Below, in pieces: positions 8,375-56,470 of a DNA stretch of 64,000 nucleotides. The position numbers and the translations under genes were made by a program. The stretch's first letter is position 1. Every line of letters starts with the position of its first letter. Source of the stretch: an uncultured Desulfospira sp. (lineage in GTDB: Bacteria; Desulfobacterota; Desulfobacteria; Desulfobacterales; Desulfobacteraceae); the NCBI GenBank assembly GCA_963663165.1, contig OY760175.1, forward strand, positions 1,504,001 to 1,568,000, read 5' to 3'. The notes beneath the pieces were generated by a model. It saw nothing but the letters and a program-made list of their open reading frames with translations. It was not told where the DNA came from and made no database searches.

Positions 8375-8454
8375 ATTCCCTGCCTGTCCAGTTTGCCGGC
8401 ATTTTTATCCTATTTAATCGGCAATAGCAAGATACATGAGCCCGGCGTTTTCGG

Positions 8455-8503
8455 TCTCCTGTCTCCCGTCTCCTGTCTCCTTTTCCTTGTTTCTTATCTC
8501 CTG
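8455..8503. repeat. Degenerate heptamer tandem repeat (TCTCCTG-like)
   Basis: tctcctg tctcccg tctcctg tctcctt ttccttg tttctta tctcctg. Confidence 0.7.
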
Positions 8504-12417: not shown

Positions 12418-12522
12418 AACAAGAAACAAGAAATTCGAAACGAGATACAAGAAAAATAAAGGAACTCAGACTGGATACAGGACAAGAATTCTTGTTTCTT
12501 GTATCTAGTTTCTAGTTTCTTG
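12381..12522. repeat. Heptamer arrays (ACAAGAA)n ... (TTCTTGT)n in inverted arrangement
   Basis: Read directly from sequence; overlaps the ilvD 3' end. Confidence 0.8.
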
Positions 12523-18811: not shown

Positions 18812-18850
18812 ACCTGCCGATTGAAACATATCCAGGCCAAACCAACATCA

Positions 18851-19034
18851 TATAACGGCCACGGGCCGCCTTGGTTATCCAACCAAGAACCGCCCACAAC
18901 GAATAATGAAAGTCTTCTCAGGACGTTAGTGAGACTTTCATATAACGGCCACGGGCCGCTTTGGTTATCCAACCAAGAGCCGCCCACAACAAATATTGAA
19001 AGTCTTTTCAGGACCTTAGTGAGACTTTCATATA
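18851..19034 (+). repeat. Two tandem copies of a 90-bp two-hairpin element
   Basis: Exact 90-nt period; hairpins CTTGGTT-ATCC-AACCAAG and ATGAAAGTCT...AGACTTTCAT; other copies at 32659-32751, 51810-51908 and 56601-56692. Confidence 0.9.
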
Positions 19035-19067
19035 AAAAAAGGCGGGCACATTTTTGTGCCCGCCTTT
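19035..19067. terminator. Intrinsic terminator (likely bidirectional)
   Basis: AAAGGCGGGCACA-loop-TGTGCCCGCCTTT between convergent genes. Confidence 0.8.
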
Positions 19068-20908: not shown

Positions 20909-21541
20909 TTAATTTTTTTTATAGCTATTGGCGATGCCCTTGGTAAGCATTTCAAATATCATTAAAAGCCTCTGGTTGATCTGGCTTTCATCCTCTTCCC
21001 TGAACAGGGAGGCCCAGGCCGCCGAATGGGCGATATGGCTGAACAGCTCGGCCATGTCGGGTGCGGGATAATCCCTGATTTCCCCGGCCTCAATGCCCTG
21101 CTCCAGGATGTCCTGAAACAGGCTGACCATTTTTTCATTGAGCCGGTTGACCCGCTCATTGAGTTTGGGGATGGCCACCGCATCAATATTGGACCGCTCG
21201 GAAATATAGATCTTCACCACCTCCTGGTTGGCCCGGTAAAATTCAGACTGGGCTTTCATGCAGGCAAACAGCTTTGAGGGGGCATCCATATCCTTATTTT
21301 GCTTGATATCAACCATGATATGGCCCAGCTCATGAATCCGCTCAATGACCAGGTCATGGTACATTTCCTTTTTCCCCGGGAAATATTTGTAAATCGTTCC
21401 CAACGGATACTGGGAGGCTTTGGAGATCTGGACCATGGTGGTTCCGTGAAATCCCCTGGCCGCAAAGATCTGGCAGGCAGTTTTTAAAATTTCCTGCCGC
21501 TTTCTTAAATCGTCCCTCTCTTTTCTGGTCACCCGGCCCAT
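20909..21541 (-). CDS. TetR/AcrR-family transcriptional regulator
   Basis: FAARGFHGTTM.QI....GTIYKYFPGK HTH. Confidence 0.92.
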   Translation of the reverse strand: MGRVTRKERDDLRKRQEILKTACQIFAARGFHGTTMVQISKASQYPLGTIYKYFPGKKEMYHDLVIERIHELGHIMVDIKQNKDMDAPSKLFACMKAQSEFYRANQEVVKIYISERSNIDAVAIPKLNERVNRLNEKMVSLFQDILEQGIEAGEIRDYPAPDMAELFSHIAHSAAWASLFREEDESQINQRLLMIFEMLTKGIANSYKKN

Positions 21542-21561
21542 GCAAATCCTTGTTTCAAGAT

Positions 21562-21577
21562 TAGAATATATATTCTA
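21562..21577. promoter_or_regulatory. Perfect palindrome, putative TetR operator
   Basis: TAGAATATATATTCTA overlapping the -10 region of a minus-strand TTGACA promoter. Confidence 0.6.
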
Positions 21578-21879
21578 TAAACAGAAGTGATATTTTTGTC
21601 AAGAAAATTTAGGGAATTAGAGCAGAGACTGAAGCAGGGGCAAATCCGGAAGCCACGGGGTTGTTCTTTATAACTGTCCGGCCAATGCTGAGAAGCAAAC
21701 CAAAATCAGGGACCGTAGCGGCTCTATATGCCCCGGTCGGCTGAGCCCCCCGATATGATGAACACCACGGTCATAAAACCCATGAAAGACAAATTCAAAT
21801 CAACACGAAGAAAAAAGCTTCAAAATCTGAGCTGTTTGAACGGGTATAAAGATAACCAACCTTACTGTGCTAAACCGCA

Positions 21880-21990
21880 TTTTTTGGGGTTAAAAAGGGT
21901 CGATTAAGGCCATAAAACCCCTTACTTTTATAACCTTTTCTCTATATTTCAAGCCGCTTAGCGCGGCCCGACCCCCGCCGCCGACCGCCG
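21880..21990 (+). repeat. R0: diverged, inverted copy of the cassette-array repeat end, with junction stutter
   Basis: TTTTTGGGGTTAAAAAGGGTCGATTAAGGC...TTAGCGCGGCCCGACCCC matches the reverse complement of R1 (...TTAGCGTGGCCCGACCCC); followed by cgccg ccgaccgccg. Confidence 0.75.
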
Positions 21991-22217
21991 AAAGCCAAAA
22001 GAAAAAAAGGGAAAAAAACCTCACACCATTGTTACTTTTTTTTCATAATTGTATTACTTTTTTTTCACAATTTCTCCATATCTTTCGCAATCACAAATAA
22101 AAAATAAAAACTGAATGCTATTCATAATATTTTTTCTAATTTATTTATATTCAAAAACACCTGCCAATAAGCTTTTTCAAAATTATATTTCATTTCTCAT
22201 TCTCAAATTGTTGAAAT

Positions 22218-22233
22218 TGGCACGCCTCTTGCT
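22218..22233 (+). promoter_or_regulatory. Sigma54 (-24/-12) promoter
   Basis: TGGCACGCCTCTTGCT fits TGGCAC-N5-TTGC and lies upstream of the PEP-CTERM gene. Confidence 0.85.
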
Positions 22234-22442
22234 AACTTTTATATTCAGTGAGTGCCTAAATACACGACCGTATTTTTAGAAAATTGGCATCATGAACGCT
22301 CACTATGTAAAATTTTCAGGGCAATATGCCTATCGCAGTCAAAATACTGCTGGAATCCCAATAGTATGTAGTGCGTTTGGGAAATAAGCCCTCGAGAATC
22401 AAACTTAATTTACGTTATTTTTCAAAAGGAGGAGGTTTGCAC

Positions 22443-23567
22443 ATGAAAAAAGGTTTATTAGTCTTCTTTACTTTAATTTTTTTAAGTTTCAGTTCAGCTT
22501 ACGCCACCACGTACAGCGAGGAATTAGCGGTTGTTAATGCGATAGCTCAGTATCTGGTGGATAATCAAAATAATGACGGTGGATGGGACTGGACACAGGC
22601 TGCTGATGGCTCTGGAGATACGAATTCCGACACTGGATCAACCCAGAACACGGCAGGTGCAACTGCCCGTGGCCTGGTTTCTGCGTATAATCTGACAGGA
22701 AATGTTGACTATCTAAATTCGGCTATTGCAACTGCAAACTACATTATAGAGAACCAGACGACTGTGGCTGGAGCGCATAAAGACTCTTTGTTTCTGTATG
22801 AACTTGATCAAACCCTTACAAATTCGGGACTTGATAATACATATAATGGAACAACTAAAACCTACGGGAAGTATGCCCAAGACGCTGTCTCCGATGCCAT
22901 AACTGCATTCACAACAACTGGAAAATATAAGACTTACTCATGGACAACTTCTGGAAAACTTTCAACTGATATTATCGCTGCTTTTAATGAAATGAGGGGA
23001 ACAGATACTGACACCTACGCCGCATTAACACTCTGGGAAGCAGGCGAGTGGGCACAGGCAATCTATACAATCTCTACTGACACGAATTATAAAACTGAAG
23101 CAATCGAACTTGCCAACACATTATTTGATTTAGCTATAGGAGACGATGGTCTTTTTAACACCACAGATGATGATTATCTTGGAGCATATGCAGATATGTA
23201 TGCGCTTGGGCTTTCAGGACTTCTTGAAGGCATGGCAACAGTAGGCTCCGATTTATCAGACATTGAAGCTCTTGTAGAATACCTTAGTTCATTAGGCACC
23301 TATGGAGATTATCAGGTAGCCGGATATTACGCTCTTGCAATGGAGTTGGCAGGAGAAATTGCTTTGGCTGAGGCTGCTGGTGTTGATATATATGATATCT
23401 ATGAGTCTTATGGATTAAACAATGGTTATAGTGCAATTTACGTGGAATGCCTGGGAGAAGCCCTTCATGGGCTATCAAGCAACATGGTTCCCGAGCCCGC
23501 CACTATGGCCCTTTTCGGACTCGGCCTTTTGGGAATTGCTGGCATTAGCAGAAGAAAAAACAGCTAA
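22443..23567 (+). CDS. PEP-CTERM exosortase-sorted surface protein
   Basis: Signal peptide MKKGLLVFF..AYA; C-terminus VPEPATMALFGLGLLGIAGISRRK; QNNDGGWDW motif like prenyltransferase/alpha-alpha barrel repeats; AGGAGG RBS. Confidence 0.92.
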   Translation: MKKGLLVFFTLIFLSFSSAYATTYSEELAVVNAIAQYLVDNQNNDGGWDWTQAADGSGDTNSDTGSTQNTAGATARGLVSAYNLTGNVDYLNSAIATANYIIENQTTVAGAHKDSLFLYELDQTLTNSGLDNTYNGTTKTYGKYAQDAVSDAITAFTTTGKYKTYSWTTSGKLSTDIIAAFNEMRGTDTDTYAALTLWEAGEWAQAIYTISTDTNYKTEAIELANTLFDLAIGDDGLFNTTDDDYLGAYADMYALGLSGLLEGMATVGSDLSDIEALVEYLSSLGTYGDYQVAGYYALAMELAGEIALAEAAGVDIYDIYESYGLNNGYSAIYVECLGEALHGLSSNMVPEPATMALFGLGLLGIAGISRRKNS

Positions 23568-23632
23568 TTACGGGAATGAAATGTAAATTGAAATGGGTTT
23601 TGAATTGTTGTTGAAAATTGTGAAATGGGTTG

Positions 23633-23864
23633 AAATGGGGTCGGGCCACGCTAACCTATTTAAAATACAATGGATAGGCTTAATTTTTGACCCTATTTCC
23701 GCCTTAATCAGCCCTTTTTAGACCCAAAAACAAAGGATTAAGGGATCAAAAGCGAGGAACGCAAGTACCCCATACCCCACAGTACCCCGGCCCCCAAATC
23801 AGGGCCCGACAAAAACCAAAAGCCGGTCGAAATTTCCTTTTCGACCGGCTTTTGGTTTAATGCT
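23633..23864 (+). repeat. R1 cassette-array repeat
   Basis: AAATGGGGTCGGGCCACGCTAAC... ending in hairpin AAACCAAAAGCCGGTCGAAA...TTTCGACCGGCTTTTGGTTT. Confidence 0.92.
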
Positions 23865-23887
23865 CCCCATAGCCTGGTAAACAGTTT

Positions 23888-23935
23888 TTAAGGTTTCAGG
23901 ATCTGCATAATGTTTCTGGCACCATGAAGTACTCT
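23888..23935 (-). pseudogene. 3' remnant of a ParE toxin gene
   Basis: Encodes RVLHGARNIMQILKP*, compared with RVPHGARNIIQILKA* for the parE at 32881; the downstream flank is also homologous. Confidence 0.8.
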
Positions 23936-23940
23936 TTGAG

Positions 23941-24163
23941 AAATGGGGTCGGGCCACGCTAACCTGTTTAAAATACATTAAATAGCCTTAATTTTTGGCC
24001 TTATTTCCGCCTTAATCAGCCCTTTTTAGGCCCAAAAACAAGGGTTAAGGATTTATAACAGGCGAACGTAAAAACCCCATAAACCCCCGGCCCAAATTAG
24101 AGCCGGACAAACCCCAAAGGCCGGTTGAAATTTTCTTTTCGACCGGCCTTTGGGGTTCATGCT
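23941..24163 (+). repeat. R2 cassette-array repeat
   Basis: Same start motif and terminal hairpin as R1. Confidence 0.92.
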
Positions 24164-24266
24164 CTTTGCCGGTACTTGATTTCGGCCACCACAGCCGGTG
24201 TCCCAGCTATATCAATTGTTTTCATAACCTCTCTGGATAAAAACAATTCAATCCCTATAATTATCG

Positions 24267-24674
24267 TTACGCCTTCCGGGCATCAAGGGTCTTGACGTGG
24301 GGATATGCCAGGATTCTATTATCCGCCGTAATCAGCTGTAAATTATGCTTTCTGGCCGATGCCACAATAATCTGGTCAGCAGGATCTTTGTGAAACTCCC
24401 CGGGAAGGGTGTTGGCCTCAATGGAAATATCAATTGATAATGGTACAATCCTGATCCCTTTAGGATTAGCAGCAGCTGTCAGCCAGTCAGCCAGAGGCAA
24501 AGACAGACACAATTTTCCCAAAGAAACTTTCTTGGCAATTTCCCAAGGGGTAATGGCCGATATGGCGAGGTCTTCCGAGCTGGAACGGCGTAGAACATCG
24601 CTTATGTTTCCGGATAAATCACCCGAGGACTCAGCCATCCAGATCAGGACATGGGTATCAAGTAAATACGTCAT
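24267..24674 (-). CDS. PIN-domain toxin (VapC-like)
   Basis: MTYLLDTHVLIW, SAITPWEI, HKDPADQIIVA, LITAD. Confidence 0.92.
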   Translation of the reverse strand: MTYLLDTHVLIWMAESSGDLSGNISDVLRRSSSEDLAISAITPWEIAKKVSLGKLCLSLPLADWLTAAANPKGIRIVPLSIDISIEANTLPGEFHKDPADQIIVASARKHNLQLITADNRILAYPHVKTLDARKA

Positions 24675-24909
24675 TTTCGGACGCTTCCCATTCATCGTCC
24701 CCCAGGGGAGAGTCAAAATCTTCTGCTATGTATGTAACGGTACCTGCCAGAGCTCCGAAAATTGGGTTTCCCCTTTTCTTTGGCGCAGGACAGGAAACAA
24801 CAGCCACAACTTTTCCCCGGTTCGTTACATGAATAGGTTGATCCAAATCCGGCAGCTTTCTTAAATATTCTGTGCATTTTGCTTTAAATTCAGTGACGGC
24901 GACCCGCAT
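24658..24909 (-). CDS. Phd/YefM-family antitoxin
   Basis: VTEFKAKC...IHVTNRGKVVAVV; overlaps the PIN gene; GAGGTG RBS. Confidence 0.9.
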   Translation of the reverse strand: MRVAVTEFKAKCTEYLRKLPDLDQPIHVTNRGKVVAVVSCPAPKKRGNPIFGALAGTVTYIAEDFDSPLGDDEWEASENDVFT

Positions 24910-25064
24910 ATCACACCTCATTTTTAAACTATTTAACCATATTATATAGTCCCAAGGTCGATTTATCAAGACAGATTATACAACGGGTCCGTGTCGTTGT
25001 ACCAAACCGCCAATGCGGAAATGGGGTTTGGAAATTTGGAAATGGGGTTTGGAAATGGGGTTGG

Positions 25065-25293
25065 AAATGGGGTCGGGCCACGCTAACGTATTTAAAACAC
25101 AGTAAATAGCCTTAATTTTTGGCTTTATTTCCGCCTTAATCAATCCTTTTTAAGCCCAAAACAGGGATTAAGGGGGGGATGCCCGAACCAACGAGCTCAA
25201 ATACCACATAAAACCCCCGGCCCCCCAAATCAGGGCCGGACAAAAACCAAAGGCCGGTCGAAATTTTTTTTTCGCCCGGCCTTTTGGGTTCAT
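25065..25293 (+). repeat. R3 cassette-array repeat
   Basis: Same start motif and hairpin; preceded by stutter at 25017-25064. Confidence 0.92.
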
Positions 25294-25348
25294 ATTTTAA
25301 GTTAGCAAGACTGGAAACCGGGAAATCGCCCCCGGAGTTGTTAACAGA

Positions 25349-25684
25349 TTATTCGCCGTACATGTCGGTTATCAGTTTCCTTAGTTGGGCTGTTTTGGTT
25401 TCAGACAGGCGGTCAATTCTATTTTTTAATCTTTGTTTGCTGATGGTGCGAATTTGATCAACGGCAATTTCAGCATCTTTCTGCGCGCATTTAATCTGTA
25501 ACCGGGTTCTCCATCTTGGATGAAGCTTTGAAGTCAATGGACAGATGACAATGGTTTCAAGGTATTGATTCATTTCATCACGGCTGACAACCACGACCGG
25601 CCGGACCTTTTTGATCTCACGGCCAAGGGTGGGGTCAAGATCGGCAAAATAGATATCATACCGTTTAATATCCAAAATCCTCAT
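25349..25684 (-). CDS. PemK/MazF-family toxin
   Basis: YFADLDPTLGREIKKVRPVVVVS, PLTS, DQIRTISKQRL; start codon uncertain (25684 or 25675). Confidence 0.92.
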   Translation of the reverse strand: MRILDIKRYDIYFADLDPTLGREIKKVRPVVVVSRDEMNQYLETIVICPLTSKLHPRWRTRLQIKCAQKDAEIAVDQIRTISKQRLKNRIDRLSETKTAQLRKLITDMYGE

Positions 25685-25940
25685 CCTCGAGTCCATCCGC
25701 CAGCGTTACATCAAACTCATCCCAATTTTCCTTTTCCCCGGCCATTTCTTTACACGTTTCCTCCCAGGACAGCTTGCCTTCCTCTTCTTTTTTCCGGAGA
25801 AGGAGTCCTTTATCGGTTTCTTCAAGCACCAGCATATTCATGAATCCATACTTTTGAATGATGTCCTTTGGGATACGGATTCCCCTTGAGTTTCCAATGG
25901 GAATGAGTTTAATGGTATTCACCCGCTTTGCTTTTTCCAT
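25665..25940 (-). CDS. AbrB/MazE-family antitoxin
   Basis: LIPIGNSRGIRIPK; acidic C-terminus; overlaps the toxin gene. Confidence 0.9.
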   Translation of the reverse strand: MEKAKRVNTIKLIPIGNSRGIRIPKDIIQKYGFMNMLVLEETDKGLLLRKKEEEGKLSWEETCKEMAGEKENWDEFDVTLADGLEDEDFGY

Positions 25941-26088
25941 TTGAGCCCCTCTCTTTGATTGGATAGCGTAGTTACAGTAATTACAATAATAATGAAAATC
26001 ACAATCAGTGTCAATGCGTGGTCACCCAAAGCTTCAAAAGGGTTCAAGGAGTGGTGGCAAAGGCGTGAAATGGAAATGAAATGGTGTG

Positions 26089-26306
26089 AAATGGGGTCGG
26101 GCCACGCTAACCTATTTAAAATACAATAGATAGGCTTAATTTTTGACCCTATTTCCGCCTTAATCAGCCCTTTTCAGGCTCAAAAAACAGGAATTAAGGA
26201 TTAGCAAGCTCAAAGATGCTATAAATTCACCGGCCCCATATTAGGGCCCGACAAAAACCAAAGGCCGGTCGAAATTTTTTTTCGACCGGCCTTTGGGGTT
26301 CATGCT
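26089..26306 (+). repeat. R4 cassette-array repeat
   Basis: First ~85 nt differ from R1 at one position; terminal hairpin present. Confidence 0.92.
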
Positions 26307-26370
26307 GTTTGTTTGTTGAGGTACTTTTGAAAAATGAGGTCTGCCTTGCCATGACAGGAACCCGATCAAA

Positions 26371-27531
26371 TTAAAGGCTGCTGCCACATGCCCGCCACCC
26401 CATAACCTGTATCCCCTTTTGCTGATAGGAGTCATCTCCGGCGTAAATCAACGTCGGCGTTTGGGCTTTCTCTTTGGCAAGGGAACACCATTTTTTAAGT
26501 CCGGCAAAAGATTCATGTGTCAAAGTGCGGCCCGACTTAATTTCAACCGGAGTTAAATAGATCCCGTTTTCCATAATAAGATCAACTTCATTGCCGTTGC
26601 TGTCCCGCCAGAAAAAAAAGGCCGGTTTTTCGCCCTGGTTCAGTTTTGATTTTATCATTTCTGAGACAATAAAAGTTTCAAAAATACTGCCCCGCAAGGG
26701 ATGGGTTATCATCTGTTCAGATGTTCTGATCCCTAAAAGCCAGGATACCAGGCCAACATCGTAGAAATAGAGCTTGGGCATTTTTACCAGCCGTTTATTA
26801 AAATTCTCATGATGGGGACGAAGAAGAAAAATGATATAACTTGCCTCAAGGACAGATATCCATGATTTTACAGTATTATGGGTAATCCCGCATTCAGTCG
26901 CCAGAGAAGAAAGGTTTAGAAGCTGCCCTGTCCTGCCGGCGCACAGCCTTACAAAGCGCTGGAATGTTTCCAGATCCTGAATTTTGAGCATTTGCCTGAC
27001 ATCCCGTTCTACATAGGCGGTTACATAAGCGCTGTACCAGGCAGAAGGCTGAAGTCCCCGGTCATAAATCGGTGGATAACAGCCGGTCAGCAGCATGGTA
27101 TCAATACTGCCTGGCAACGCACTCGCAAGGGTAAGTTCCGGTATGGAAAAAGGCAGCAGTTCAACAAAGGCCGTCCGTCCGGCAAGGGATTGTGTAATAC
27201 CGGACATCAGGCCGAACTGCTGAGATCCCGTCAATATAAAAAGCCCCATTCCACCGTTATTATCCACCAGGGTTTGGAGATAGGACAAAATTTGAGGACA
27301 TCGCTGCACTTCATCCAGAACCGCTCCGTTTGGAAACCGGGCAAGAAAAGAACGGGGATCTTCTGTTGCGGCCTGCCTGAGATCCGGCTCTTCAAGAGAT
27401 GCATATGGGTGATTTGAAAAAACCGCCCTGGCAAGGGTAGTCTTACCTGATTGGCGTGGTCCGGTCAGGGTTACAACGGGAAATCCGCCCAGCAGGTTTT
27501 CAAGTATTTCTCTTGCATTTCGATGAATCAT
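26371..27531 (-). CDS. AAA+ ATPase with C-terminal DUF4143/PD-(D/E)xK-like domain
   Basis: GPRQSGKTTL, LDEVQ, LTGS, LAGR, KMPKLYFYDVGL, FETF, RDSNGNEVDLI, VEIKSG. Confidence 0.88.
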   Translation of the reverse strand: MIHRNAREILENLLGGFPVVTLTGPRQSGKTTLARAVFSNHPYASLEEPDLRQAATEDPRSFLARFPNGAVLDEVQRCPQILSYLQTLVDNNGGMGLFILTGSQQFGLMSGITQSLAGRTAFVELLPFSIPELTLASALPGSIDTMLLTGCYPPIYDRGLQPSAWYSAYVTAYVERDVRQMLKIQDLETFQRFVRLCAGRTGQLLNLSSLATECGITHNTVKSWISVLEASYIIFLLRPHHENFNKRLVKMPKLYFYDVGLVSWLLGIRTSEQMITHPLRGSIFETFIVSEMIKSKLNQGEKPAFFFWRDSNGNEVDLIMENGIYLTPVEIKSGRTLTHESFAGLKKWCSLAKEKAQTPTLIYAGDDSYQQKGIQVMGWRACGSSL

Positions 27532-27593
27532 GGCAAATTTCTATAAACCTCACTCAAAATGAAATATAAATTCATTTCATACATTAAGCCGGA

Positions 27594-27630
27594 TTATGCA
27601 ATTTGTAAATAACTTTTACAAATTGCATAA
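27594..27630. promoter_or_regulatory. 16-bp perfect inverted repeat upstream of the ATPase gene
   Basis: TTATGCAATTTGTAAA-N5-TTTACAAATTGCATAA. Confidence 0.6.
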
Positions 27631-27700
27631 AAGACTCTTGGGGCCTATATATTTTGGGAGTGAAATGTGAAAAAAGCGCCGCCCACCGCGCACACGCATT

Positions 27701-27832
27701 CTAAAACAAATCAGAATGTGTTCCGGTCCGTTCAAAAACAACTTTATCCGGTTCAATTATATAGATCAGCAGCCAATCAGATTCAATGTAACATTCCCGG
27801 CACCCCTTCCAATTGCCGATCAGCTTATGATC
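27701..27832 (-). pseudogene. yafQ: YafQ toxin, 3' half (split by transposon)
   Basis: DHKLIGNWKGCRECYIESDWLLIY...FERTGTHSDLF*. Confidence 0.9.
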
Positions 27833-27975
27833 CCGGTTGAGAATGGTCACAAAAAATCATGGAAAAATTGAAGATAATTTGCAAGATATGTCAGGTTTGA
27901 GGCAGAAGTTCCCCTGTTTATCTCGCAAATAATCGTGAAACTCCTGCCTCCCCACCCAATAACAGGGCAGGAGAT

Positions 27976-28563
27976 ATGCTATCAGAAGTTCTGAAAAACG
28001 AAAGTTTTTTTTGGGATCTATACAAAATAGATCTGGCAACAGCCGAACGTTATAGACAGATGAAGTGCCCCCACTGCCAGGGACCGTTGTATTATGCCAA
28101 TTATCCGCGCAAACCCAGGGGGGAGCCTGAAGGGTTGTCTGAAGAATGTTTTTTACAATTCAGTTTATGTTGCGGAAGGGAAGGCTGTCGACGTCGTTTG
28201 ATCCCGCCAACCTGCCGTTTCCTTGGTAAAAACATTTACTGGTATGCGGCCATTCTGACGATTGTGTCCGACTGGCAGAACCAATCTGTAGGTATCACGA
28301 TGTCCAGGTTTGCTGAAACAATCGGTATCTCCCGCAACACCCTTAGCCGCTGGGTCAGCTTATTCAAAGAAATATTTCCAACAAGCTCTCAATGGAAGAA
28401 AATCCGGGGCCGAGTACCTGCAAGCGTAAAAAATGATCGTCTTCCAGCAAGTTTGGTCAACTTCTATCTGCATCAACAGGCGTCCATCAAAAAAACGTTG
28501 ATCTCCTGTTTGTCATTCTTGTCTCAAGGCAGTGAAATATCACAAAAAATAAGGGCCGGGTAA
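27976..28563 (+). CDS. Transposon accessory protein (Zn-ribbon plus putative HTH)
   Basis: CPHC ... CCGREGCRRR; IGISRNTLSRW. Confidence 0.75.
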   Translation: MLSEVLKNESFFWDLYKIDLATAERYRQMKCPHCQGPLYYANYPRKPRGEPEGLSEECFLQFSLCCGREGCRRRLIPPTCRFLGKNIYWYAAILTIVSDWQNQSVGITMSRFAETIGISRNTLSRWVSLFKEIFPTSSQWKKIRGRVPASVKNDRLPASLVNFYLHQQASIKKTLISCLSFLSQGSEISQKIRAG

Positions 28564-28678
28564 TCTCACGCAGAAGATGGGCGTGGCCTTGGGCGCTCAA
28601 CTGTTCTATCAAAGGGGCCGGGATTTTTATCAGCATTTCGCTGAAAATTTTAACTCAAAATTGAAAGGACCCCGGCCT

Positions 28679-30124
28679 ATGAACAGTAAAAACCAAAGTC
28701 CGGTTGATAACTGGGCTTTGTTTCGCTTCTCAGTCGTTGGCGGTTTGCTGGCAAATCCGCCGGCCAAAGGTGAGCTGCGCAAGGAACTGGAAAAGCTTTC
28801 CTATCAGATTTACACCCATCCCATCACGAACGAATCAACGGTATTTCATTTTTCAACTATTGAAAGCTGGTATTACAAGGCAAAAAATGCCCAGGACCCC
28901 ATTATTGCTTTAGGGCGGAAAGTTCGTTCTGACTATGGCGGTTCAATTGTATTCACACCTGAACTGATCCGGATGCTGGGCAGACAATACCGGACTTATC
29001 CGAACTGGAGCTACAAACTGCACGCAGATAATTTCGCAGCAGAACTCCAGGAAAAGGAGGCTTCAGTATCGGTACCATCCTATGCCAGTGTCCGGCGGCG
29101 GATGATCGAAAGGGGGTGGACCAGGAAGCCCTCAGCAAAGAAAAAACAGACAGCGGGTATGAAAATTGCCGCAAAGCGGTTCGAAAGCCATGAAATCCGA
29201 GGATACGAAGCAGAATATGTTCACAGCCTGTGGCATCTGGATTTTCATGAAGGCAGTCTGCGGGTGGTGGATAACAACGGTAACTGGTATACGCCCAAAG
29301 CCTTATGTATTCTTGACGACCATTCCCGCCTGTGCTGCCACATCCAATGGTATTCAGGAGAAACCACCCAGGATTTGATTCATGGATTGACCCAGGCATT
29401 TTTCAAAAGGGGGCTTCCCAGGGCACTGATGACGGACAACGGATCTGCCATGACCTCCCATGAGTTTTGCAACGGTCTTAAAAAAACAGGGATACTTCAT
29501 GAAACGACACTGCCCTACAGCCCTTATCAAAACGGTAAGCAGGAAGCCTTTTGGGGAACCCTTGAAGGCAGATTGATGGCCATGCTGACCCGGGTGGACC
29601 CTCTGACACTGGAATATCTCAATCACAGCAGTCAGGCCTGGGTCGAGATGGAATATAACAAAACCAGGCATAGTGACATCGGCACATCTCCTGTTCAACG
29701 CATGCTTGAAGGCAAAGATGTTTCCCGGCCGGCACCGGATGAAGAGCAACTGAGGTTCGCCTTTACAGTCTGCGAATCCAGAAATCAGCGAAAATCTGAC
29801 GGTACCGTGTCCATCAACGGGGTAAGATTTGAGATCCCTTCCCGGTTTCACCATATCCCTCGGTTACATGTCTGCTTTGCCAATTGGGATAAATCCATGG
29901 CCTGGCTCATGGACCAGAGAACCGGCAAACAGATTGCGCAGATCTACCCCCAGGACAAAATCAAAAATGCTTCAGGAAAACGAAAGATCAAGTCGAGACC
30001 TGAGCATACCATTCTACCGGATGAAACATTGAAAGAATCCGAGCCTGCATTATTAAGAAAACTGATGGCCGAGTATGCCCAAAGCGGCATGCCTCCAGCC
30101 TATCTTCCCAAAGGAGAATCATGA
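28679..30124 (+). CDS. DDE integrase/transposase (rve core, Mu-like C-terminus)
   Basis: LWHLD, ILDDHSR, LMTDNGSA, PYSPYQNGKQE; RKSDGTVSINGVRFEIP. Confidence 0.92.
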   Translation: MNSKNQSPVDNWALFRFSVVGGLLANPPAKGELRKELEKLSYQIYTHPITNESTVFHFSTIESWYYKAKNAQDPIIALGRKVRSDYGGSIVFTPELIRMLGRQYRTYPNWSYKLHADNFAAELQEKEASVSVPSYASVRRRMIERGWTRKPSAKKKQTAGMKIAAKRFESHEIRGYEAEYVHSLWHLDFHEGSLRVVDNNGNWYTPKALCILDDHSRLCCHIQWYSGETTQDLIHGLTQAFFKRGLPRALMTDNGSAMTSHEFCNGLKKTGILHETTLPYSPYQNGKQEAFWGTLEGRLMAMLTRVDPLTLEYLNHSSQAWVEMEYNKTRHSDIGTSPVQRMLEGKDVSRPAPDEEQLRFAFTVCESRNQRKSDGTVSINGVRFEIPSRFHHIPRLHVCFANWDKSMAWLMDQRTGKQIAQIYPQDKIKNASGKRKIKSRPEHTILPDETLKESEPALLRKLMAEYAQSGMPPAYLPKGES

Positions 30125-30948
30125 ACAACAAACAGCTTCTGGCTTATTACGGCCTTAAATGGAACCCTTTTTTTCCTAATATCCCCGTGGAAGCCTTATG
30201 GCATCCGCCATTGATGAACAGTTTTATTTTTCGTCTTGAGAATATGACCCTGAACGGGGGCTTTGCTTTGATCAGCGGGGACCCCGGCCTTGGCAAATCC
30301 AAGGCGTTGCAGATGATTGCCCAAAAGTTCGGTAAACTTGACGAGGTAGTTGTCGGGGTAATGGAACGTCCCCAAAGCAGTGTCGGAGACTTTTACCGGG
30401 AAATGGGAGTTTTGTTTGGTGTCAATTTGAGCCCTGCCAACCGGTACGGCGGGTTCAAGGATCTTCGGGAGCGCTGGAAAAGTCATGTAAAAACCACCTT
30501 GTTCCGGCCCATCCTGCTCATAGATGAGGCCCAGGAGATGCTGACCGGATGCTTAAATGAACTGCGTTTGTTGAACAGCGCGGACTTTGACTCCCAAAAC
30601 CTGTTGACCACCGTGATTTGCGGCGATGACCGGCTCCCGGAACGGTTCAGATCAAGATCCCTGGTATCGCTGGGAAGCCGGATGCAGTTCCGGCTGACGC
30701 TGCTTCCCTATGTCCGGGATGACCTGCTGGATTACATGGATCACAGCCTGAACCAGGCCGGCGCCCCGCACTTAATGACGAAAACTCTGATCAGGACCCT
30801 TGCAGACCATTGCGCCGGCAACCTGCGGGTTCTTAACAATATGGCCGCAGACCTGCTGACTGCGGGGATTGAAAAAGAACTCAATCAATTGGACGAAAAG
30901 CTTTTTATGGAAGTCTATTCCAGACAGCCGCCCAATAAAAAATCATAG
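30121..30948 (+). CDS. ExeA-like AAA ATPase (transposition helper)
   Basis: Walker A GDPGLGKS, Walker B ILLIDEAQ; ATGA coupling to the transposase. Confidence 0.9.
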   Translation: MNNKQLLAYYGLKWNPFFPNIPVEALWHPPLMNSFIFRLENMTLNGGFALISGDPGLGKSKALQMIAQKFGKLDEVVVGVMERPQSSVGDFYREMGVLFGVNLSPANRYGGFKDLRERWKSHVKTTLFRPILLIDEAQEMLTGCLNELRLLNSADFDSQNLLTTVICGDDRLPERFRSRSLVSLGSRMQFRLTLLPYVRDDLLDYMDHSLNQAGAPHLMTKTLIRTLADHCAGNLRVLNNMAADLLTAGIEKELNQLDEKLFMEVYSRQPPNKKS

Positions 30949-30957
30949 GAGAACAAT

Positions 30958-31140
30958 ATGGGTATTTATGATGATCCGGACATGAAACTGGAAGAAATCA
31001 CACAGGAATTGGAACATTTTATCCTGGATATGGTCCTTGCCGGACTTGAAAGCTTGAATATGGAATATCGGGCCTTCAGGCGATTCCAGAAACAAAGGCT
31101 CACGGAAAAGAACCGTCATAAAGAACACGAGCCGTTTTGA
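30958..31140 (+). CDS. Small hypothetical protein in the transposon
   Basis: 60 aa, AGGAG RBS, co-oriented within the element. Confidence 0.65.
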   Translation: MGIYDDPDMKLEEITQELEHFILDMVLAGLESLNMEYRAFRRFQKQRLTEKNRHKEHEPF

Positions 31141-31177
31141 ACGTACGCCCGGACTCCAAAGGTCCGGGCCTGCCTCA

Positions 31178-31966
31178 ATGGAAAAAATACTTTGGAAAAT
31201 CGGCAATTATTTTAAGCACCGCTTCAGCCTGGCAGTTCTTGATGAAATTAAGGGCCGGTGGCCCGTTCTCCCCTCTTGTAAAAACATCCCTTATCTTAAA
31301 GCTGAAAATGCCGGAGGAAGGCACATCCTGATCAGACCTGATCCTGTTATTCAGCCTTATTATTTTCTTGCCGACGATTTAAACATTGACCTGCTTATCC
31401 GGCATCATCAATCCATATCAAACCGCTTTAAACCAGGCAGGATGGTTATAGAAACATCTCCCGGCAATTATCAAATTTGGATTCACAGTGACCGTCCGTT
31501 AAGCCTTCCCGAAAAAAAGTATTGGTTGGAAAACATGCACAGTGATCCCGGCGCCGACCCGAAAAACAGGTGGGGCAGATGCCCCGGGTTCAGGAACAGA
31601 AAAGCAAAACACAGAACGCCTTCAGGACAATACCCTTTGGCAAAGCTATTATGGGTGGACTGGAAATGCCAGGCTATTGTCCCTGAAATAGAATTATCCT
31701 CCCAACCTCAAGAAGTCTTTTCCCATCAACCCCGGGGGGGAGTGTGCCATAACGGTAATATTTCCCGCTCCCTCTATGATAAGGGTGACGAATCTGCCAC
31801 TGATTTTGCATATGCTCTGGCCCTCTATAGAAGAGGTTTCTCACGAATGGAAATTTACAATCGCATTATCAATGAAAGGCAGGATTGGATTAATCATGCG
31901 GGTGAACGAAAAAAAACACAGTATCTGATCAGGACATTACAGAAAGCTGAAAAAATTATCAGTTAA
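31178..31966 (+). CDS. RepB'-like archaeo-eukaryotic-type DNA primase
   Basis: LADDL, VIETSPGNYQIW, DPGA...WGRCPGFRNRK, C-terminal GDESATDFAYA...YLIRTLQKA resembling RSF1010 RepB' motifs (recognised by eye). Confidence 0.8.
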   Translation: MEKILWKIGNYFKHRFSLAVLDEIKGRWPVLPSCKNIPYLKAENAGGRHILIRPDPVIQPYYFLADDLNIDLLIRHHQSISNRFKPGRMVIETSPGNYQIWIHSDRPLSLPEKKYWLENMHSDPGADPKNRWGRCPGFRNRKAKHRTPSGQYPLAKLLWVDWKCQAIVPEIELSSQPQEVFSHQPRGGVCHNGNISRSLYDKGDESATDFAYALALYRRGFSRMEIYNRIINERQDWINHAGERKKTQYLIRTLQKAEKIIS

Positions 31967-32043
31967 AATCGGGCTCTCTTGGCCTCCGGGAAAGCCCTTA
32001 TTTACCATGAAACGTTGTCCATGAATTATCGTGATTGCTCTCA

Positions 32044-32178
32044 CCGGTGAATGGGATCAAGCACTTCTTCCGCCACAAGAGAGCGAATGATTATTTTTAA
32101 CTTTTCGAGATTTTTCCCACGTTCTTTCATTTGCCTGATGTCACGCTCAAACTGCTTTGTATATGCAGGCGTAAGCAT
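32044..32178 (-). pseudogene. yafQ: YafQ toxin, 5' half (split by transposon)
   Basis: MLTPAYTKQFERDIRQMKERGKNLEKLK...LDPIHR, then the transposon end; TGATG coupling with the antitoxin. Confidence 0.9.
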
Positions 32179-32438
32179 CAGATTCCCAATTTTTTGAACA
32201 TGTCATCCGTATCTTTGCAAATGACCAGATCCCGTCCGGCATCCGTCTGCGAAAAAGTTTTGAGCGTTGTTTTATTGGGAATTGCCACATCAAACGGAAG
32301 CCCTTTTTTCAATTCAACCTGTTTATAAAATAAGGTGATCGCTTGAGTTGTGGTTAGCCCAAGCTGCTGAAATATATGCTCGGCTTTACCCTTTAAATCC
32401 GGTTCAATTCGAGCCCTGATGGTGGATGTTTTGCCCAT
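32178..32438 (-). CDS. dinJ: RelB/DinJ-family antitoxin
   Basis: IRARIEPDLK.KAEHIFQQLGLTTTQAITLFY.QV...GLPF. Confidence 0.88.
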   Translation of the reverse strand: MGKTSTIRARIEPDLKGKAEHIFQQLGLTTTQAITLFYKQVELKKGLPFDVAIPNKTTLKTFSQTDAGRDLVICKDTDDMFKKLGI

Positions 32439-32550
32439 GATTTACCTCTCTGTGGATATAATATATTTTGTAGCTCAAATGAGGAACACTGTCAAGCAGT
32501 GAGATTTCATCAGGATTCCAAATAAACGCCTCAGATGACTTCTCAGTAAT

Positions 32551-32856
32551 AAATGGGGGGCCACGCCAATGTATTTAAAATACAAACAGCCTTAATTTTA
32601 GGCCTCATTTCCGCCTTAATCAGCCCTGTTTAGGCTCAAAAAACAGGGATTAAGGATTTACATGAAAGTCTTACTAACAATCTGAAAAGACTTTCATTTT
32701 TCGTTGTGGCCCGATGCTCGGTTGGATAACCCAATCGGGCCATGCCCGTTAGTAAACTCAAAGATACTATAAATTCATCGGCCCCATAGTGGAGCCGGAT
32801 CAAAACCCAAAGGCCGGTCGAAATTTTATTTTCGTCCGGCCTTTGGGTTTCATGAT
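32551..32856 (+). repeat. R5 cassette-array repeat, interrupted by a 90-bp element
   Basis: AAATGGGGGGCCACG... plus terminal hairpin; extra segment at 32659-32751 relative to R4. Confidence 0.88.
32659..32751 (-). repeat. 90-bp two-hairpin element inserted in R5
   Basis: TA-CATGAAAGTC...GCCCGT-TA, homologous to the 18851 units. Confidence 0.8.
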
Positions 32857-32880
32857 CCCCATAGCCTGGTTAAACAGTTT

Positions 32881-33168
32881 TTAAGCTTTTAGGATCTGAA
32901 TAATGTTTCTGGCCCCATGAGGTACTCTTTCAATGCGTATATTGGGACCAGCGGTATAAAAAATCAGGTAGGATTTAAATGGAACCATTCTAATATTGTC
33001 CCCGAAATCGGGGCGCAGGGGATATAAATCCGGCGTATCGGTTAACTGTTGACACACCTCCCTGACCTCTAAAATAAAAGACAAAGCCCGCGAAGGGTTA
33101 TCTTTAGCGATATAGTCACCAATTTCTTCAAGATCAAATTCAGCAAGAGGTGAAAAATAACAGTGCAT
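32881..33168 (-). CDS. parE: RelE/ParE-family toxin
   Basis: FSPLAEFDLEEIGDYIAKDNPSRA...YLIFY...HGARN. Confidence 0.88.
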   Translation of the reverse strand: MHCYFSPLAEFDLEEIGDYIAKDNPSRALSFILEVREVCQQLTDTPDLYPLRPDFGDNIRMVPFKSYLIFYTAGPNIRIERVPHGARNIIQILKA

Positions 33169-33174
33169 TGAATT

Positions 33175-33435
33175 TTATCCCTTTGTTCCCCAATCTCTAT
33201 ATTTGGCTTCCAGGCGATTGAAAACTATGTCCACTGGTGTGCCGTCACCACTGTCTTTTCCGGCTTGAATTTTCGCTTTCAATTGTTGAATCTGAATAGC
33301 GTGAATTTCTTCTTGTTCTTCAAACAAACGCAACGCTTCCCGTATGACTTCGCTGGCACTGGTATATCGCCCGCTTTCCACTTTGCTTTTAATCATATTT
33401 TCAAAATGTGGTCCTATGGCATAACTACTTGGCAT
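33175..33435 (-). CDS. parD: ParD-family antitoxin
   Basis: VESGRYTSASEVIREALRL...IQAGKDSG. Confidence 0.9.
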   Translation of the reverse strand: MPSSYAIGPHFENMIKSKVESGRYTSASEVIREALRLFEEQEEIHAIQIQQLKAKIQAGKDSGDGTPVDIVFNRLEAKYRDWGTKG

Positions 33436-33523
33436 TCCCGCCCCCTTTTATCAGATATTATCACTATTTGATAAATCCTACCATCTTATCGACGAGGTGT
33501 CATCAAAATTTTTAAAATGTTTA

Positions 33524-33660
33524 AAATGGGGTCGGGCCACACTAACGCATTTAAAATACATTAGATAGCCTTAATTTTTGGTCCTATTTCCGCCTTAATC
33601 AGCCCTTTTCAGGCTCAAAAAACAAGGGCTAAGAATATTTTTTTATAACTGGCGAAGGTA
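33524..33660 (+). repeat. R6 cassette-array repeat (truncated, no terminal hairpin)
   Basis: AAATGGGGTCGGGCCACACTAAC...CCGCCTTAATCAGCCC. Confidence 0.88.
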
Positions 33661-33742
33661 AAGGTCTGTAAGAGGCCTGTCCCCCCAGGCAAACGGATAT
33701 CTAAGATGATTGCAGATAACAATCGGCAGGCGTGCGAACGGC

Positions 33743-33789
33743 AAAAAAAAGCGCACCCTAAAGCCATACCGGCTTTGGGGTGCGCTTTT
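33743..33789 (-). terminator. Terminator of the qrc operon
   Basis: AAAAGCGCACCCTAAAGCC-loop-GGCTTTGGGGTGCGCTTTT; T-run on the minus strand. Confidence 0.8.
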
Positions 33790-33832
33790 AAACTTTATGG
33801 CCCTCTCTCTGGTTCAGGAAAGGGTCATGATG

Positions 33833-33991
33833 CTAATGGTGAGAATCGCCCTTATCCGTGACCGTGTCATAGGCGGCCTTAAGGATACAGTAGGTCATGC
33901 CGGCACCGAGGATGCCGATGGCGTACCAGAATCCGCCGAAGAAGACGGCATGGCCGATGTCCCAGGCCCATTCAAAGCAAAATGGAAACAT
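33833..33991 (-). CDS. 52-aa membrane peptide at the end of the qrc operon
   Basis: AAGGAGAG RBS; MFPFCFEWAWDIGHAVFFGGFWYAIGILGAGMTYCILKAAYDTVTDKGDSHH; 15 nt after qrcD and before the terminator. Confidence 0.8.
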   Translation of the reverse strand: MFPFCFEWAWDIGHAVFFGGFWYAIGILGAGMTYCILKAAYDTVTDKGDSHH

Positions 33992-34006
33992 AGGTTCTCT
34001 CCTTTT

Positions 34007-35254
34007 TTATTGTTCAGCCTGGGGCTGGTTCAGTTCGAGTTCCTGGGGAAATACCGGCAGGTAGCGGTAGGCCACGGCGATCAGGATAATCCCGTAAGCC
34101 ACGGGCAGAACCGTTGTGGCGATTTCCTGCCATGAGGGGAAGTACAATGCCCAGGTATCAAAGCTCATGACCGGTACGGCCATGATCTGAAGGACCATTA
34201 CCCACCGGTTAAGGCAGACCCCGATAACGGCAAGGATAATGGCGATCAGCCTGAAAGCGCCGCTTTCACGGGTAGGCCTGAAAATCAGGATAAGCCCGGG
34301 AATTACGCCGCAAAGGATGATCTCGGTAAACAGTATCCAGTATCCGTAAAATCCGTTGTTGCTGTAAAAATGGCCTAAAGTAAAGCCCATGCTTGGGGCG
34401 GTGACATTGGCCCAGTAAATGGTGTCAATGATCTTGGCAATGATATAGGTGGTGATCATCCAGCCTGAAATCTTGGCCAGCAGGTGGATGGTTTTGTCGC
34501 TCACCAGCTTTTTACCGGTGATGGCCTCGGTCATCCTTGTAACCAGCAGGGTGAAACAGGGGCCGAAAGCCGCTGCCGACCAAGTGAACAGGAAAAAGGT
34601 CCAGGGCCAGATGAGCAGCCCTTCCCGGTAGGCAAAAGGACGGCCGAACATAACACCGGCAACCCCGCCCAGGGAACCCTGATGGAAAAAGGACAGGAAC
34701 GCGCCGGTAGCGGCAAAGACCGCCATGACCCCGTGCATGTTGTGGGCCAGGTGGTGGCAGAAGGGCACCTTGTTAAGCTGTCTGTTTTCCAGAATATTGG
34801 GAATAAACTCAATGGTCAGGACCGCAAAGTAGCAGGACAGGCAAAAGGCTACCTCGGTAAGCATTGAGTGGACATTGGCATGCCAGAAGATGAACCAGCC
34901 GCGCAGGGGCTGTCCAATATCAATGGCCAGGATCAGCAGGGCCGAGCTGTAACAGATAAACCCGATGATCACGGCAAAGTTGATGATGTTTTTTAACTCG
35001 TCCACCTTAAAGATGTATTTAAGCAGGCCCGTGAAAAAGGCCCCGCCCCCTACGGCGATGACGGCCAGGTCAGCCCAGATCCAGAGGGCAAACCCGTAAT
35101 AGTCGTTCATGTTGGTCTGGTTCAAGCCCTTGAACCAGCACAGCAGCATGGCGAAAACGCCCCAGAGCAGTACAGCGCCGACAATGACAATCCCAATCAT
35201 AAACTTTGGAAAAGAGCACCGTCTGGCACCTTCGGGTATTAATGCAGAATCCAT
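34007..35254 (-). CDS. qrcD: Quinone reductase complex membrane subunit (NrfD/PsrC family)
   Basis: WIWADLAVIA.GGGAF, DIGQPLR.WF, SMLTEV, HQGSLGG; operon order. Confidence 0.9.
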   Translation of the reverse strand: MDSALIPEGARRCSFPKFMIGIVIVGAVLLWGVFAMLLCWFKGLNQTNMNDYYGFALWIWADLAVIAVGGGAFFTGLLKYIFKVDELKNIINFAVIIGFICYSSALLILAIDIGQPLRGWFIFWHANVHSMLTEVAFCLSCYFAVLTIEFIPNILENRQLNKVPFCHHLAHNMHGVMAVFAATGAFLSFFHQGSLGGVAGVMFGRPFAYREGLLIWPWTFFLFTWSAAAFGPCFTLLVTRMTEAITGKKLVSDKTIHLLAKISGWMITTYIIAKIIDTIYWANVTAPSMGFTLGHFYSNNGFYGYWILFTEIILCGVIPGLILIFRPTRESGAFRLIAIILAVIGVCLNRWVMVLQIMAVPVMSFDTWALYFPSWQEIATTVLPVAYGIILIAVAYRYLPVFPQELELNQPQAEQ

Positions 35255-35278
35255 AGTGTTTGTCTCCTAAGTTTAATG

Positions 35279-36133
35279 TTATCCATGGGATTCGGAACCG
35301 TGATGATTCTTCACCTTGTCCCATTCACCCTTAAGGTAGTTGTCCCCGGCCTTTCTGACCCACTCGCGTTCAGACATGTAATAGACCTTGGGATTGGTCC
35401 CGAGCCGTTCAAGAAGCCGGAACACATTCGGGTTCCTGGATTTTCCCACCACACTGTGGTTCTTTGGATCCGGATGGGGATCTGGTTTGACAATCTGGTG
35501 AACCTGATGGGAGGGATTGTTCAAATCACCGAACACAATGGCCCCTGCCGGGCATGCCGTGGTGCAGGCGGTCTGGTATTCGTTTTCTTCGATTTCCCGG
35601 TCCTCCACATAGGCCTGTTCCTTGGCCAGCTGATACCGGTGGTAGCAGAAGCTGCACTTTTCAACGATGCCCCTCATTCTCGGAGAGACATTGGGGCTTA
35701 AGTAATTTTCCATGCCCTCAGGCCATTTGGGGTCCCACCAGTTAAAATACCGGGCATGGTACGGGCAGGCCCCCATGCAGTACCGGCAGCCAAAGCAACG
35801 GGTGTAAATCTGGCTGACAATTCCCGTGTCATACCCGTAGTCCGTGGCCGTTGCCGGGCATACGGAAACACAGGGGGAGTGGCCGTGGTCCCCTTTGCCG
35901 CCGCAGTGCTGGCAAGGACGGGGAATATAGGCCACCTCAGTGTTGGGAAACGTTTTGCCGTTGGTTATTTTATAAACGCGCATCCAGGTGATGCTGTCCT
36001 TTTTCCTGGACTCATCCTCCTTAAACGGAACGTTATTCTCCGACATGCAGGATACCATGCAGGAGCCGCATCCGGTGCATTTGTCCAGATCAATAACCAT
36101 TCCGAACTTGTGTGCTTTTGTATCGTGTGTCAT
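35279..36133 (-). CDS. qrcC: Quinone reductase complex Fe-S subunit
   Basis: CTGCGSCMVSC, CQHC..CVSVCP, CFGCRYCMGACP, CSFC..CTTACP. Confidence 0.9.
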   Translation of the reverse strand: MTHDTKAHKFGMVIDLDKCTGCGSCMVSCMSENNVPFKEDESRKKDSITWMRVYKITNGKTFPNTEVAYIPRPCQHCGGKGDHGHSPCVSVCPATATDYGYDTGIVSQIYTRCFGCRYCMGACPYHARYFNWWDPKWPEGMENYLSPNVSPRMRGIVEKCSFCYHRYQLAKEQAYVEDREIEENEYQTACTTACPAGAIVFGDLNNPSHQVHQIVKPDPHPDPKNHSVVGKSRNPNVFRLLERLGTNPKVYYMSEREWVRKAGDNYLKGEWDKVKNHHGSESHG

Positions 36134-36159
36134 CAGAACCTCTTAAGATTGTTAGTCAT

Positions 36160-38998: not shown

Positions 38999-39224
38999 GA
39001 AAACTCCATCAAAGTTAAAAAGTTGATGTTACCTATCGCCTATTTGTCCGGGAACCGCCCGAACCTTTATTTTTTCGCAGGACACCCCTAAAGGCACCTG
39101 CAATTTATCGGTAAATGGGGCAATCAGCGTTATTCTATATTAAGATCCTGTTTTGTTGTCAAGTAAAGGATGAATTATCCCGGCCAAACGCCCTTGCAAA
39201 ACCCTAAAAAAATAAACCGCCCCC

Positions 39225-39299
39225 TCTTATTTCCTGTCTCTTATCTCTTGTTTCTTGTTTCCTGTCTCTTGTTTCCTGTCTCTTGTTTCTTGTCTCTTG
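39225..39299. repeat. Heptamer tandem array (TCTTGTT/TCCTGTC-like)
   Basis: About 10 degenerate 7-mers right after the ccsA stop. Confidence 0.75.
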
Positions 39300-51809: not shown

Positions 51810-51908
51810 TAAAGGGCAGGAACCAGACTGGCTTAAGTGTTCCCGTCTTAAGCATCGGTCCACAATGAAAAATGAAAGTCTTTTCAACTTGGTTAAAGGA
51901 CTTCCATA
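51810..51908 (+). repeat. Diverged copy of the 90-bp two-hairpin element
   Basis: ...AGCATCGGTCCACAATGAAAAATGAAAGTCTTTTCA...GACTTCCATA. Confidence 0.65.
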
Positions 51909-56447: not shown

Positions 56448-56470
56448 TTTTTCTCCTTCAAGGGTTGTGG

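Follow-up and report, generated by a model that had tools for sequence, protein, structure and literature searches.

Solo copies of a repeat lie between small accessory genes in the window, a 64,000-nucleotide stretch of an uncultured Desulfospira sp. genome, and at several of these copies the repeat end is followed by stuttered partial copies of itself. We asked how the stutters arose, and whether the same process may have built the gene array in which they are found.

Read on the minus strand, TTAGCGTGGCCCGACCCC is the end of the repeat, and it is followed by a tip of 5 to 7 nt and then by tandem partial copies. These copies have a common end at the tip, and their start points vary within the repeat end. 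We refer to such a series as a ladder. All of the stutter strings quoted in an earlier, sequence-only reading of this DNA were found in the window (Table 1). The ladders at R1, R4, R6 and the inverted R0 are shorter than that at R3. That reading had reported little or no stutter at R2 and R5; indeed, neither carries a ladder, and the GACCCC terminus of R5 has lost two bases. It had also described a bare stutter, lacking a repeat, between the ATPase and yafQ cassettes, which was confirmed. The number of such repeats expected per 170-bp gap is 0.0008, for a pattern picked post hoc, and the likeliest reading of the bare stutter is that it is the footprint of deleted ends. Most of the window repeats carry an extra hairpin part of ~100 bp.

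Table 1. Repeats, ladders, cargo genes and insertion element in the window. TIR, terminal inverted repeat.
Feature	Position	Strand	Remark
R0, inverted solo TIR	21864..21975	+	
R0 ladder, tip CGCCG, at inverted R0	21976..21990	+	
PEP-CTERM gene, between outer tips of R0 and R1	22443..23567	+	Pfam PF07589
R1 ladder, tip ATTTCA, adjoins PEP-CTERM stop codon	23572..23636	-	
R1 unit: TIR, hairpin and last ~60 nt of parE-like gene	23637..23937	-	88% to 32801-32930
R2: TIR and hairpin; tip joined into parE remnant with 2 extra bases, no ladder	23938..24162	-	
Cargo: Phd-like antitoxin (below Pfam cut-off) and PIN toxin	24267..24969	-	
R3 ladder: tip ATTTCC and four tip-anchored partial copies	25017..25068	-	spanned without difference in 4 runs
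R3 TIR, ~112 bp, ends GGCCCGACCCC; inner hairpin part continues to ~25293	25069..25180	-	
Cargo: mazE-like and mazF/pemK-like pair	25349..25940	-	
R4 ladder	26066..26092	-	
R4 TIR and hairpin	26093..26305	-	
Cargo: AAA_14 and DUF4143 ATPase	26371..27531	-	
Bare ATTTCA-type ladder without TIR, probable remnant of a deleted end	27659..27673	-	
Possible opposed ladder remnant	27677..27697	+	its 11-mer, like the bare-stutter pattern picked after being noticed, has its sole other genome site in the ladder at C1:1377329
yafQ-type gene, 3' part, split by IS	27701..27838	-	PF15738
Unrelated 4.2-kb insertion element: small ORF, rve integrase, AAA ATPase, RepB primase	27838..32043	+	
Cargo: relB	32178..32438	-	
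R5: damaged tip, no ladder, interrupted by ~95-bp palindromic repeat	32551..32854	-	
Cargo: parD-parE	32881..33435	-	
R6 ladder, tip ATTTTA	33505..33527	-	
R6 TIR without hairpin part	33528..33640	-	

The 4.2-kb insertion element, which has 6 further near-identical copies in the genome and encodes a RepB primase, was considered as the maker of the stutters and rejected: it has short ends of its own, and its other copies lie elsewhere. Two further repeat types were observed in the window. A family of ~95-bp palindromic repeats, for which BLAST gave 209 hits at least 60 nt long in the genome, is represented at 18848-19036, 32657-32752, 51851-51907 and 56597-56706, and one copy lies at the inner border of the R5 TIR. 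Tandem arrays of 7-mers are found between housekeeping genes at 8440-8503, 12378-12452, 39222-39313 and 56456-56560.

Genome-wide recurrence and templating of the ladders

A 45-column weight matrix, trained on 34 of the 53 sites that it finds in the 6.74-Mb genome, found no site in a block-shuffled genome. One of the 53 sites is itself a stutter copy and was left out. When the junctions of the remaining 52 were aligned at GACCCC, the first 5 nt after GACCCC recurred within the next 60 nt at 30 sites, and two or more times at 20. Controls for these 52 sites gave 8/52 on the inner side, 8.3% with swapped tips, 8.8% at random positions and 10.5% in intergenic DNA. We also pooled ends from this genome (G000), its relatives, Y1 loci and metagenomes; ladders were present at 144 of these 292 ends, compared with 3.6% with swapped tips, in a pool that includes related and near-duplicate sequences and 38 ends chosen for a tip starting ATTT. 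Within this pool there was no link between an intact TIR core and a ladder, since ladders were seen at 121 of 245 ends with an intact core and at 23 of 47 others.

Contigs assembled from short reads spanned the R1 and R3 ladders with 0 differences in 4/4 runs from two studies. Among the contig pieces listed, the R0 ladder was spanned in three and the R4 ladder in one. This comparison covered the array up to position 27900, one of its runs may be the source of the window, and rare variants are not visible in contigs. In one run, a low-depth contig carried a different ladder behind a matching gene end. Because the contigs of the four runs reproduce the ladders exactly, as does a second assembly (G001) that carries this segment of the window at 99.9% identity, and because ladders are found in many unrelated assemblies, we regard the probability of an assembly artefact as negligible. 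The stutters are confirmed as real.

The partial copies share an outer anchor at +5 to +8, that is, 5-8 nt outside GACCCC, and reach inward by varying distances of up to 28 nt, with inner boundaries that become steadily rarer as length increases and favor no particular site. Copies seldom share more than 3 nt beyond +5. The 5-mer of the tip recurs on the outside at 145 of 291 ends and on the inside at 12 of 291. The element carries the tip along, as at least five outer bases were common to the two members in 37 of 53 near-identical TIR pairs with unrelated flanks. The sequence-only reading had taken the stutter unit to include junction-specific bases; this holds for the bases beyond the first 5-6, which are local, and fails for the first 5-6, which move with the element. 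The base before a copy was the last base of the TIR concerned in 30 of 37 cases for G, 9 of 9 for A, 11 of 14 for T and 214 of 257 for C. These data show that the copies are templated by the local TIR. The presence of the local TIR variant in the copies, and a different ladder at the orthologous site in G001, agree with the earlier proposal that the stutters formed locally at each junction.

Adjacent copies shared their +6/+7 bases in 89 of 198 pairs, compared with 67.0 +/- 4.2 in within-ladder shuffles; after identical units were collapsed, the values were 78 of 187 and 59.1 +/- 4.2 (0/5000 shuffles). Mean overlap at the junctions was 1.25, compared with 1.1-1.2 in a no-homology simulation. 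Microhomology at the junctions did not rise above this null, and 75 of 140 clean junctions lacked any overlap, as did 15 of 28 long units. Templated bases fully explained 151 of 328 junctions, and the unexplained stretches of 1-3 nt were 40% A on the GACCCC strand, compared with 28% in the flanks. The units of the R3 ladder end in AA, and some adjacent ladder units are identical.

The repeat as an end of a Y1/HUH transposase element

The window repeat is the ~112-bp TIR of a Y1/HUH transposase of the TIRtron type, an identity that the sequence-only reading missed. This genome has 14 PF01797 matches, and several of the non-IS200 ones are framed by inverted GGGG ends with ladders outside. Across 79 loci of the cognate Y1 family, the TIR was found upstream of the gene at 63, downstream at 64 and on both sides at 52, and ladders lay outside 28 of 62 left ends and 31 of 61 right ends. 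When left, right and solo ends were aligned, the TIR measured ~112 bp, and its right copy overlapped the last codons of the gene. Genome G002 carries an intact element with the TIR and ladders on both sides. The present genome holds an intact cognate gene at C1:4910635-4911465, flanked by TIR ends, and a second copy split by an IS200.

In the cognate enzyme H60, H62 and Y121 are conserved, and N125 and M126 are invariant in 59 aligned proteins. The copy from this genome scores 20.7 bits against PF01797, under the Pfam cut-off of 23, which two relatives pass. The top fold match of a structural model (pLDDT 82) was TnpA-REP 4er8 (E 2.8e-7), with further matches to the IS608 and ISDra2 transposases; the C-terminal part of the model is helical, and its tail has low confidence. 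By a hand count in which kin are non-independent, the TIR motif occurred in 19 of the 27 family genomes that have the gene and in 20 of the 85 that lack it.

Several observations concern the surroundings of these ends. In this genome, ladders are likewise found beyond the ends of Y1 subfamilies that have other TIRs, at L006 (C1:4421595 and 4426332) and at C1:4833887, 3023654 and 4888279. TIR tips are joined into or beside very large repeat-type genes, which we take to be RHS-like, at L064 in G001 and at C1:1.22-1.26 Mb and 1.78-1.81 Mb in G000, once in the middle of the gene. In G001, each of the single TIR-bounded elements at L062 and L065 has two outer flanks that match G000 positions distant from one another, and these elements therefore sit at rearrangement breakpoints. 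A PEP-CTERM gene lies between two facing TIR tips both at C1:1377306-1378820 and at window positions 21975-23637, and in both cases the stop codon is near one of the ladders. The idea that PEP-CTERM genes are targeted in general was rejected, with a tip within 600 nt at only 2 of 59 pattern-defined genes. A replication-strand bias of the TIRs (36 of 52 sites) was dropped because the count became 15 versus 13 after clusters were collapsed.

Turnover, candidate mechanism and larger units

Comparison of C1:5936132 with the orthologous site L071 in G001 revealed the same flanks and tip and different ladders, with no ladder unit in common. In two metagenome pairs the ladders differ by one unit, and here the outer unit is shared, which would place growth at the TIR side. 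These comparisons show in-place change of the ladders with time. For those G001 tips that had TIR-free G000 DNA to be set against, the ladder met the flank without a fixed duplication, sometimes inside a gene, among the comparisons seen. The earlier view that these scars differ from a fixed-length target duplication was thus upheld for the junctions compared with TIR-free DNA. No stutter follows the PEP-CTERM gene at the TIR-free G002 locus, as judged by eye.

Between tetR and nrfD, G002 is free of both TIR and cargo, but no alignment runs across the gap, and so a base-level empty site for the window array was not obtained. The G001 segment is 99.9% identical and therefore provides no contrast as an empty site. 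That identity extends over window positions 21502-37405 (G001 C1:4883995 onward), amid flanking genes of only 88-94% identity, and reflects either a recent transfer or a mixed assembly.

From these sequence comparisons we hypothesize, with moderate confidence, that the stutters are tandem tip copies produced by repeated nicking, short inward extension and HUH resealing. The enzyme would bind the TIR and cut the strand reading GGGGTC 5-8 nt outside GGGG, holding the 5' end of the element as a phosphotyrosine and leaving a 3'-OH on the flank. This strand, and the flank 3'-OH, are suggested by polarity alone, because the copies share their outer boundary and differ in their inner one. A host polymerase would extend the flank 3'-OH into the TIR, displacing the bound strand, and the new 3'-OH would then attack the phosphotyrosine. 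Replication would fix the resulting tandem copy, which would be added bluntly and beside the TIR. The cycle could repeat, and as a whole it would amount to an aborted rolling-circle start. Cleavage by HUH enzymes, in the account given in the text of PMC8266576, leaves the 5' end linked as a phosphotyrosine and frees a 3'-OH, which is able either to prime synthesis or to attack that link, and a close scheme is drawn for BIME amplification according to the legend of Fig. 7B in PMC3333891. Points against the proposed mechanism are the untemplated bases, the wander of the anchor from +5 to +8, the independence of the ladders from an intact core, and a direction of growth that comes from the two metagenome pairs. 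The excess of A among the unexplained bases would suit untemplated A addition on the other strand.

We favor nicking, extension and resealing over slippage because of the local templating, the differences between orthologous ladders, the inheritance of +6/+7 bases by neighboring units and the lack of a microhomology excess. That inheritance and the orthologous turnover also indicate separate fixed events and not one burst. The sequence-only reading had offered two origins for the scars. Of repeated insertion and excision at the same nick, the repeated action at one nick is supported by the local templating, the different orthologous ladder and the lack of a fixed target duplication, and the insertion and excision of whole elements is unneeded. 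Its other proposal, iterative slipped synthesis at a free 3' end, was not supported, because junction overlap is no higher than in the no-homology simulation and over half of the clean junctions have none. Set out in full, this idea, which we consider unlikely, has the enzyme nick the GACCCC strand at the tip or leave a free end there, whereupon the 3' end gains untemplated bases, slips into the TIR and re-extends to the tip, once or repeatedly, until it joins the flank. Such a scheme would fit the mild A excess on that strand, the AA ends of the R3 units and the extra bases at over half of the junctions; both the clean junctions and the long units without overlap speak against it, and it would not readily produce units of 100-300 nt. 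Strand transfer alone, whether by joining a fixed cut at the tip to a cut at a varying inner position in a sister copy or by serial ligation of short tyrosine-linked oligonucleotides released from tips, is also improbable. It would be consistent with blunt joins without homology and with the cutting and joining of several sites by TnpA-REP in vitro, as reported in the text of PMC3333891 and PMC8266576, but it requires a second, non-specific cut, and the inner boundaries of the copies have no preferred site.

Ordinary replication slippage or repair at repeat junctions, with the transposase uninvolved, may well enlarge ladders that already exist. As their origin we judge it very unlikely. The genome does contain many 7-mer tandem arrays, identical adjacent units occur, and ladders are found at solo ends far from any Y1 gene; yet the anchor is one-sided, fixed and at a set distance from the TIR, unit lengths are unequal, there is no excess of microhomology, ladders also lie outside other TIR types around other Y1 genes in G000, and the TIR-free G002 locus has no ladder after its PEP-CTERM gene, as judged by eye. 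A further candidate is reverse transcription that starts on an RNA whose end lies at the tip and is then aborted. Target-primed retrotransposition offers a mechanistic parallel, and re-initiation on the 3' end of an RNA would be expected to leave suffix copies that have one end in common and carry extra bases. The ladders occur on both inverted ends and thus on opposite strands, however, and the gene between the ends encodes an HUH nuclease and gave no hit to a reverse transcriptase family, which leaves this explanation with an extremely low probability.

If the nicked flank is indeed extended and resealed, longer displacement would produce units of 34-308 nt, and long displaced strands transferred to another tip would produce one-ended gene-bearing units, for example those of the window toxin-antitoxin array. 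Tip-anchored copies of 34, 99, 105 and 184 nt were found, the last including ~60 nt of the adjacent gene. Of 8 close co-oriented TIR pairs tested, only 2 are plain local copies (34 and 184 nt). We infer that the 308-nt R1 unit is one long tip-anchored partial copy; because it is only 81% like its neighbor R2, it is no recent local copy. Between two tips, G000 carries a 1.7-kb ATPase cassette that G001 lacks. Given this presence and absence and the tip-anchored units of 34-308 nt, the toxin-antitoxin array may represent the ladder process on a larger scale. There was no TIR near any of the four homologues of the window ATPase examined in other genomes, and so, with few plain local copies among the close TIR pairs, the window array does not demonstrate cargo capture.

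In genome G005, TIRs of two types, the present one and a sister type, recur along a 47-kb stretch (L055-L057, C3:715-762 kb), most of them in one orientation and with PIN, HEPN, nucleotidyltransferase and Y1 genes lying between them. In three places in this array the tip supplies an ATG directly after GACCCC. A separate observation in G000 is a pemK-type toxin-antitoxin cassette at C1:806140-806994, within the right TIR region of a Y1 element; it is flanked by a ~25-bp duplication and is absent in G001.

It is conceivable, though doubtful, that TIR-flanked Y1 enzymes in general are tip-priming copy-and-reseal recombinases that generate ladders, duplicate ends and stack one-ended gene units in integron-like arrays. 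If so, they would provide an undescribed route of gene capture, without attC or IntI, for toxin-antitoxin and surface genes such as those of the window and the 47-kb array, and the ladders would be a running record of enzyme activity at each site. If the long units arise likewise, TIR ends would pile accessory genes into islands and promote deletions and rearrangements in sulfate-reducer-like genomes.

Comparison with known systems

The type of element is already in print. TIRtron/TIRYT elements, as presented in the portions of text available from Di Nocera et al. 2013 (PMC3733652) and from Quentin et al. 2018 (PMC6006769), who take them as TnpA-Y1 subclass 2.1, resemble the present one in having a Y1/HUH gene (PF01797) with the HUH motif and a catalytic tyrosine, in the placement of this gene between long TIRs starting GGGG (at both ends in 52 of 79 loci here) and not REP hairpins, and in the dispersal of solo, paired and grouped TIR copies (53 sites in G000). 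In those same portions, the start GGGGWSAS is given for the majority of TIRs and not for all; the TIR here starts GGGGTCGG, with one mismatch to that consensus. The enzyme reads YIDLNM in place of the class 2 signature Y-x-x-x-NP set out there, and three cognate proteins gave no hit to the C-terminal HTH Pfam families (Bac_DnaA_C, HTH_23, HTH_28). Because GGGGWSAS is off by one and the NP and HTH tail are missing, we class the element as TIRtron-like and keep it out of subclass 2.1, which is the group nearest to the cognate enzyme and is stated in the text of PMC6006769 to occur in 14.9% of strains. The running text of PMC3733652 and PMC6006769, figures and supplements aside, does not mention stuttered tips or cargo arrays. 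We found no account of stuttered TIR tips in the TIRYT, TnpA-REP, IS91 and Y1/HUH literature, in which subscription papers are under-covered, and none, biochemistry included, of how subclass 2.1 enzymes act on their TIRs. The present analysis adds tests that separate mechanisms (local templating, neighbor inheritance, no microhomology and in-place turnover) and a continuum of sizes up to gene cassettes. The ladders predict the nicked strand, the position of the nick (5-8 nt outside GGGG) and a requirement for a polymerase.

REPtrons share the fold of the cognate enzyme, and the model of BIME amplification by TnpA-REP, to the extent set out in the text of PMC3333891 and PMC8266576, likewise has a nick, extension by the host, attack on the phosphotyrosine and the addition of one unit. 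In that model TnpA-REP acts on a short GTAG hairpin, which it cuts at CT, and a second cut allows whole BIME units to be added, whereas here the end is a ~112-bp TIR, no fixed cut sequence is seen and the units measure from a few to hundreds of bases. By eye, the flanks of the cognate genes are TIRs and not short GTAG-tagged palindromes. The IS91 family, rolling-circle elements with one-ended transposition in the text portions of PMC13181058, is similar in its HUH enzyme, lack of target duplication, one fixed and one variable end and carriage of adjacent DNA; it differs, by the same source, in having distinct oriIS and terIS, no TIRs and a fixed tetranucleotide target. Here the two ends are alike and inverted, both stutter, no target motif was seen and the outer bases vary. 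Integron cassette arrays consist of repeats of one orientation that separate small accessory genes, with toxin-antitoxin pairs common among these, and the window array has this same layout. It departs from them in that the repeat is a transposon TIR and the units can be of any length, gene fragments included.
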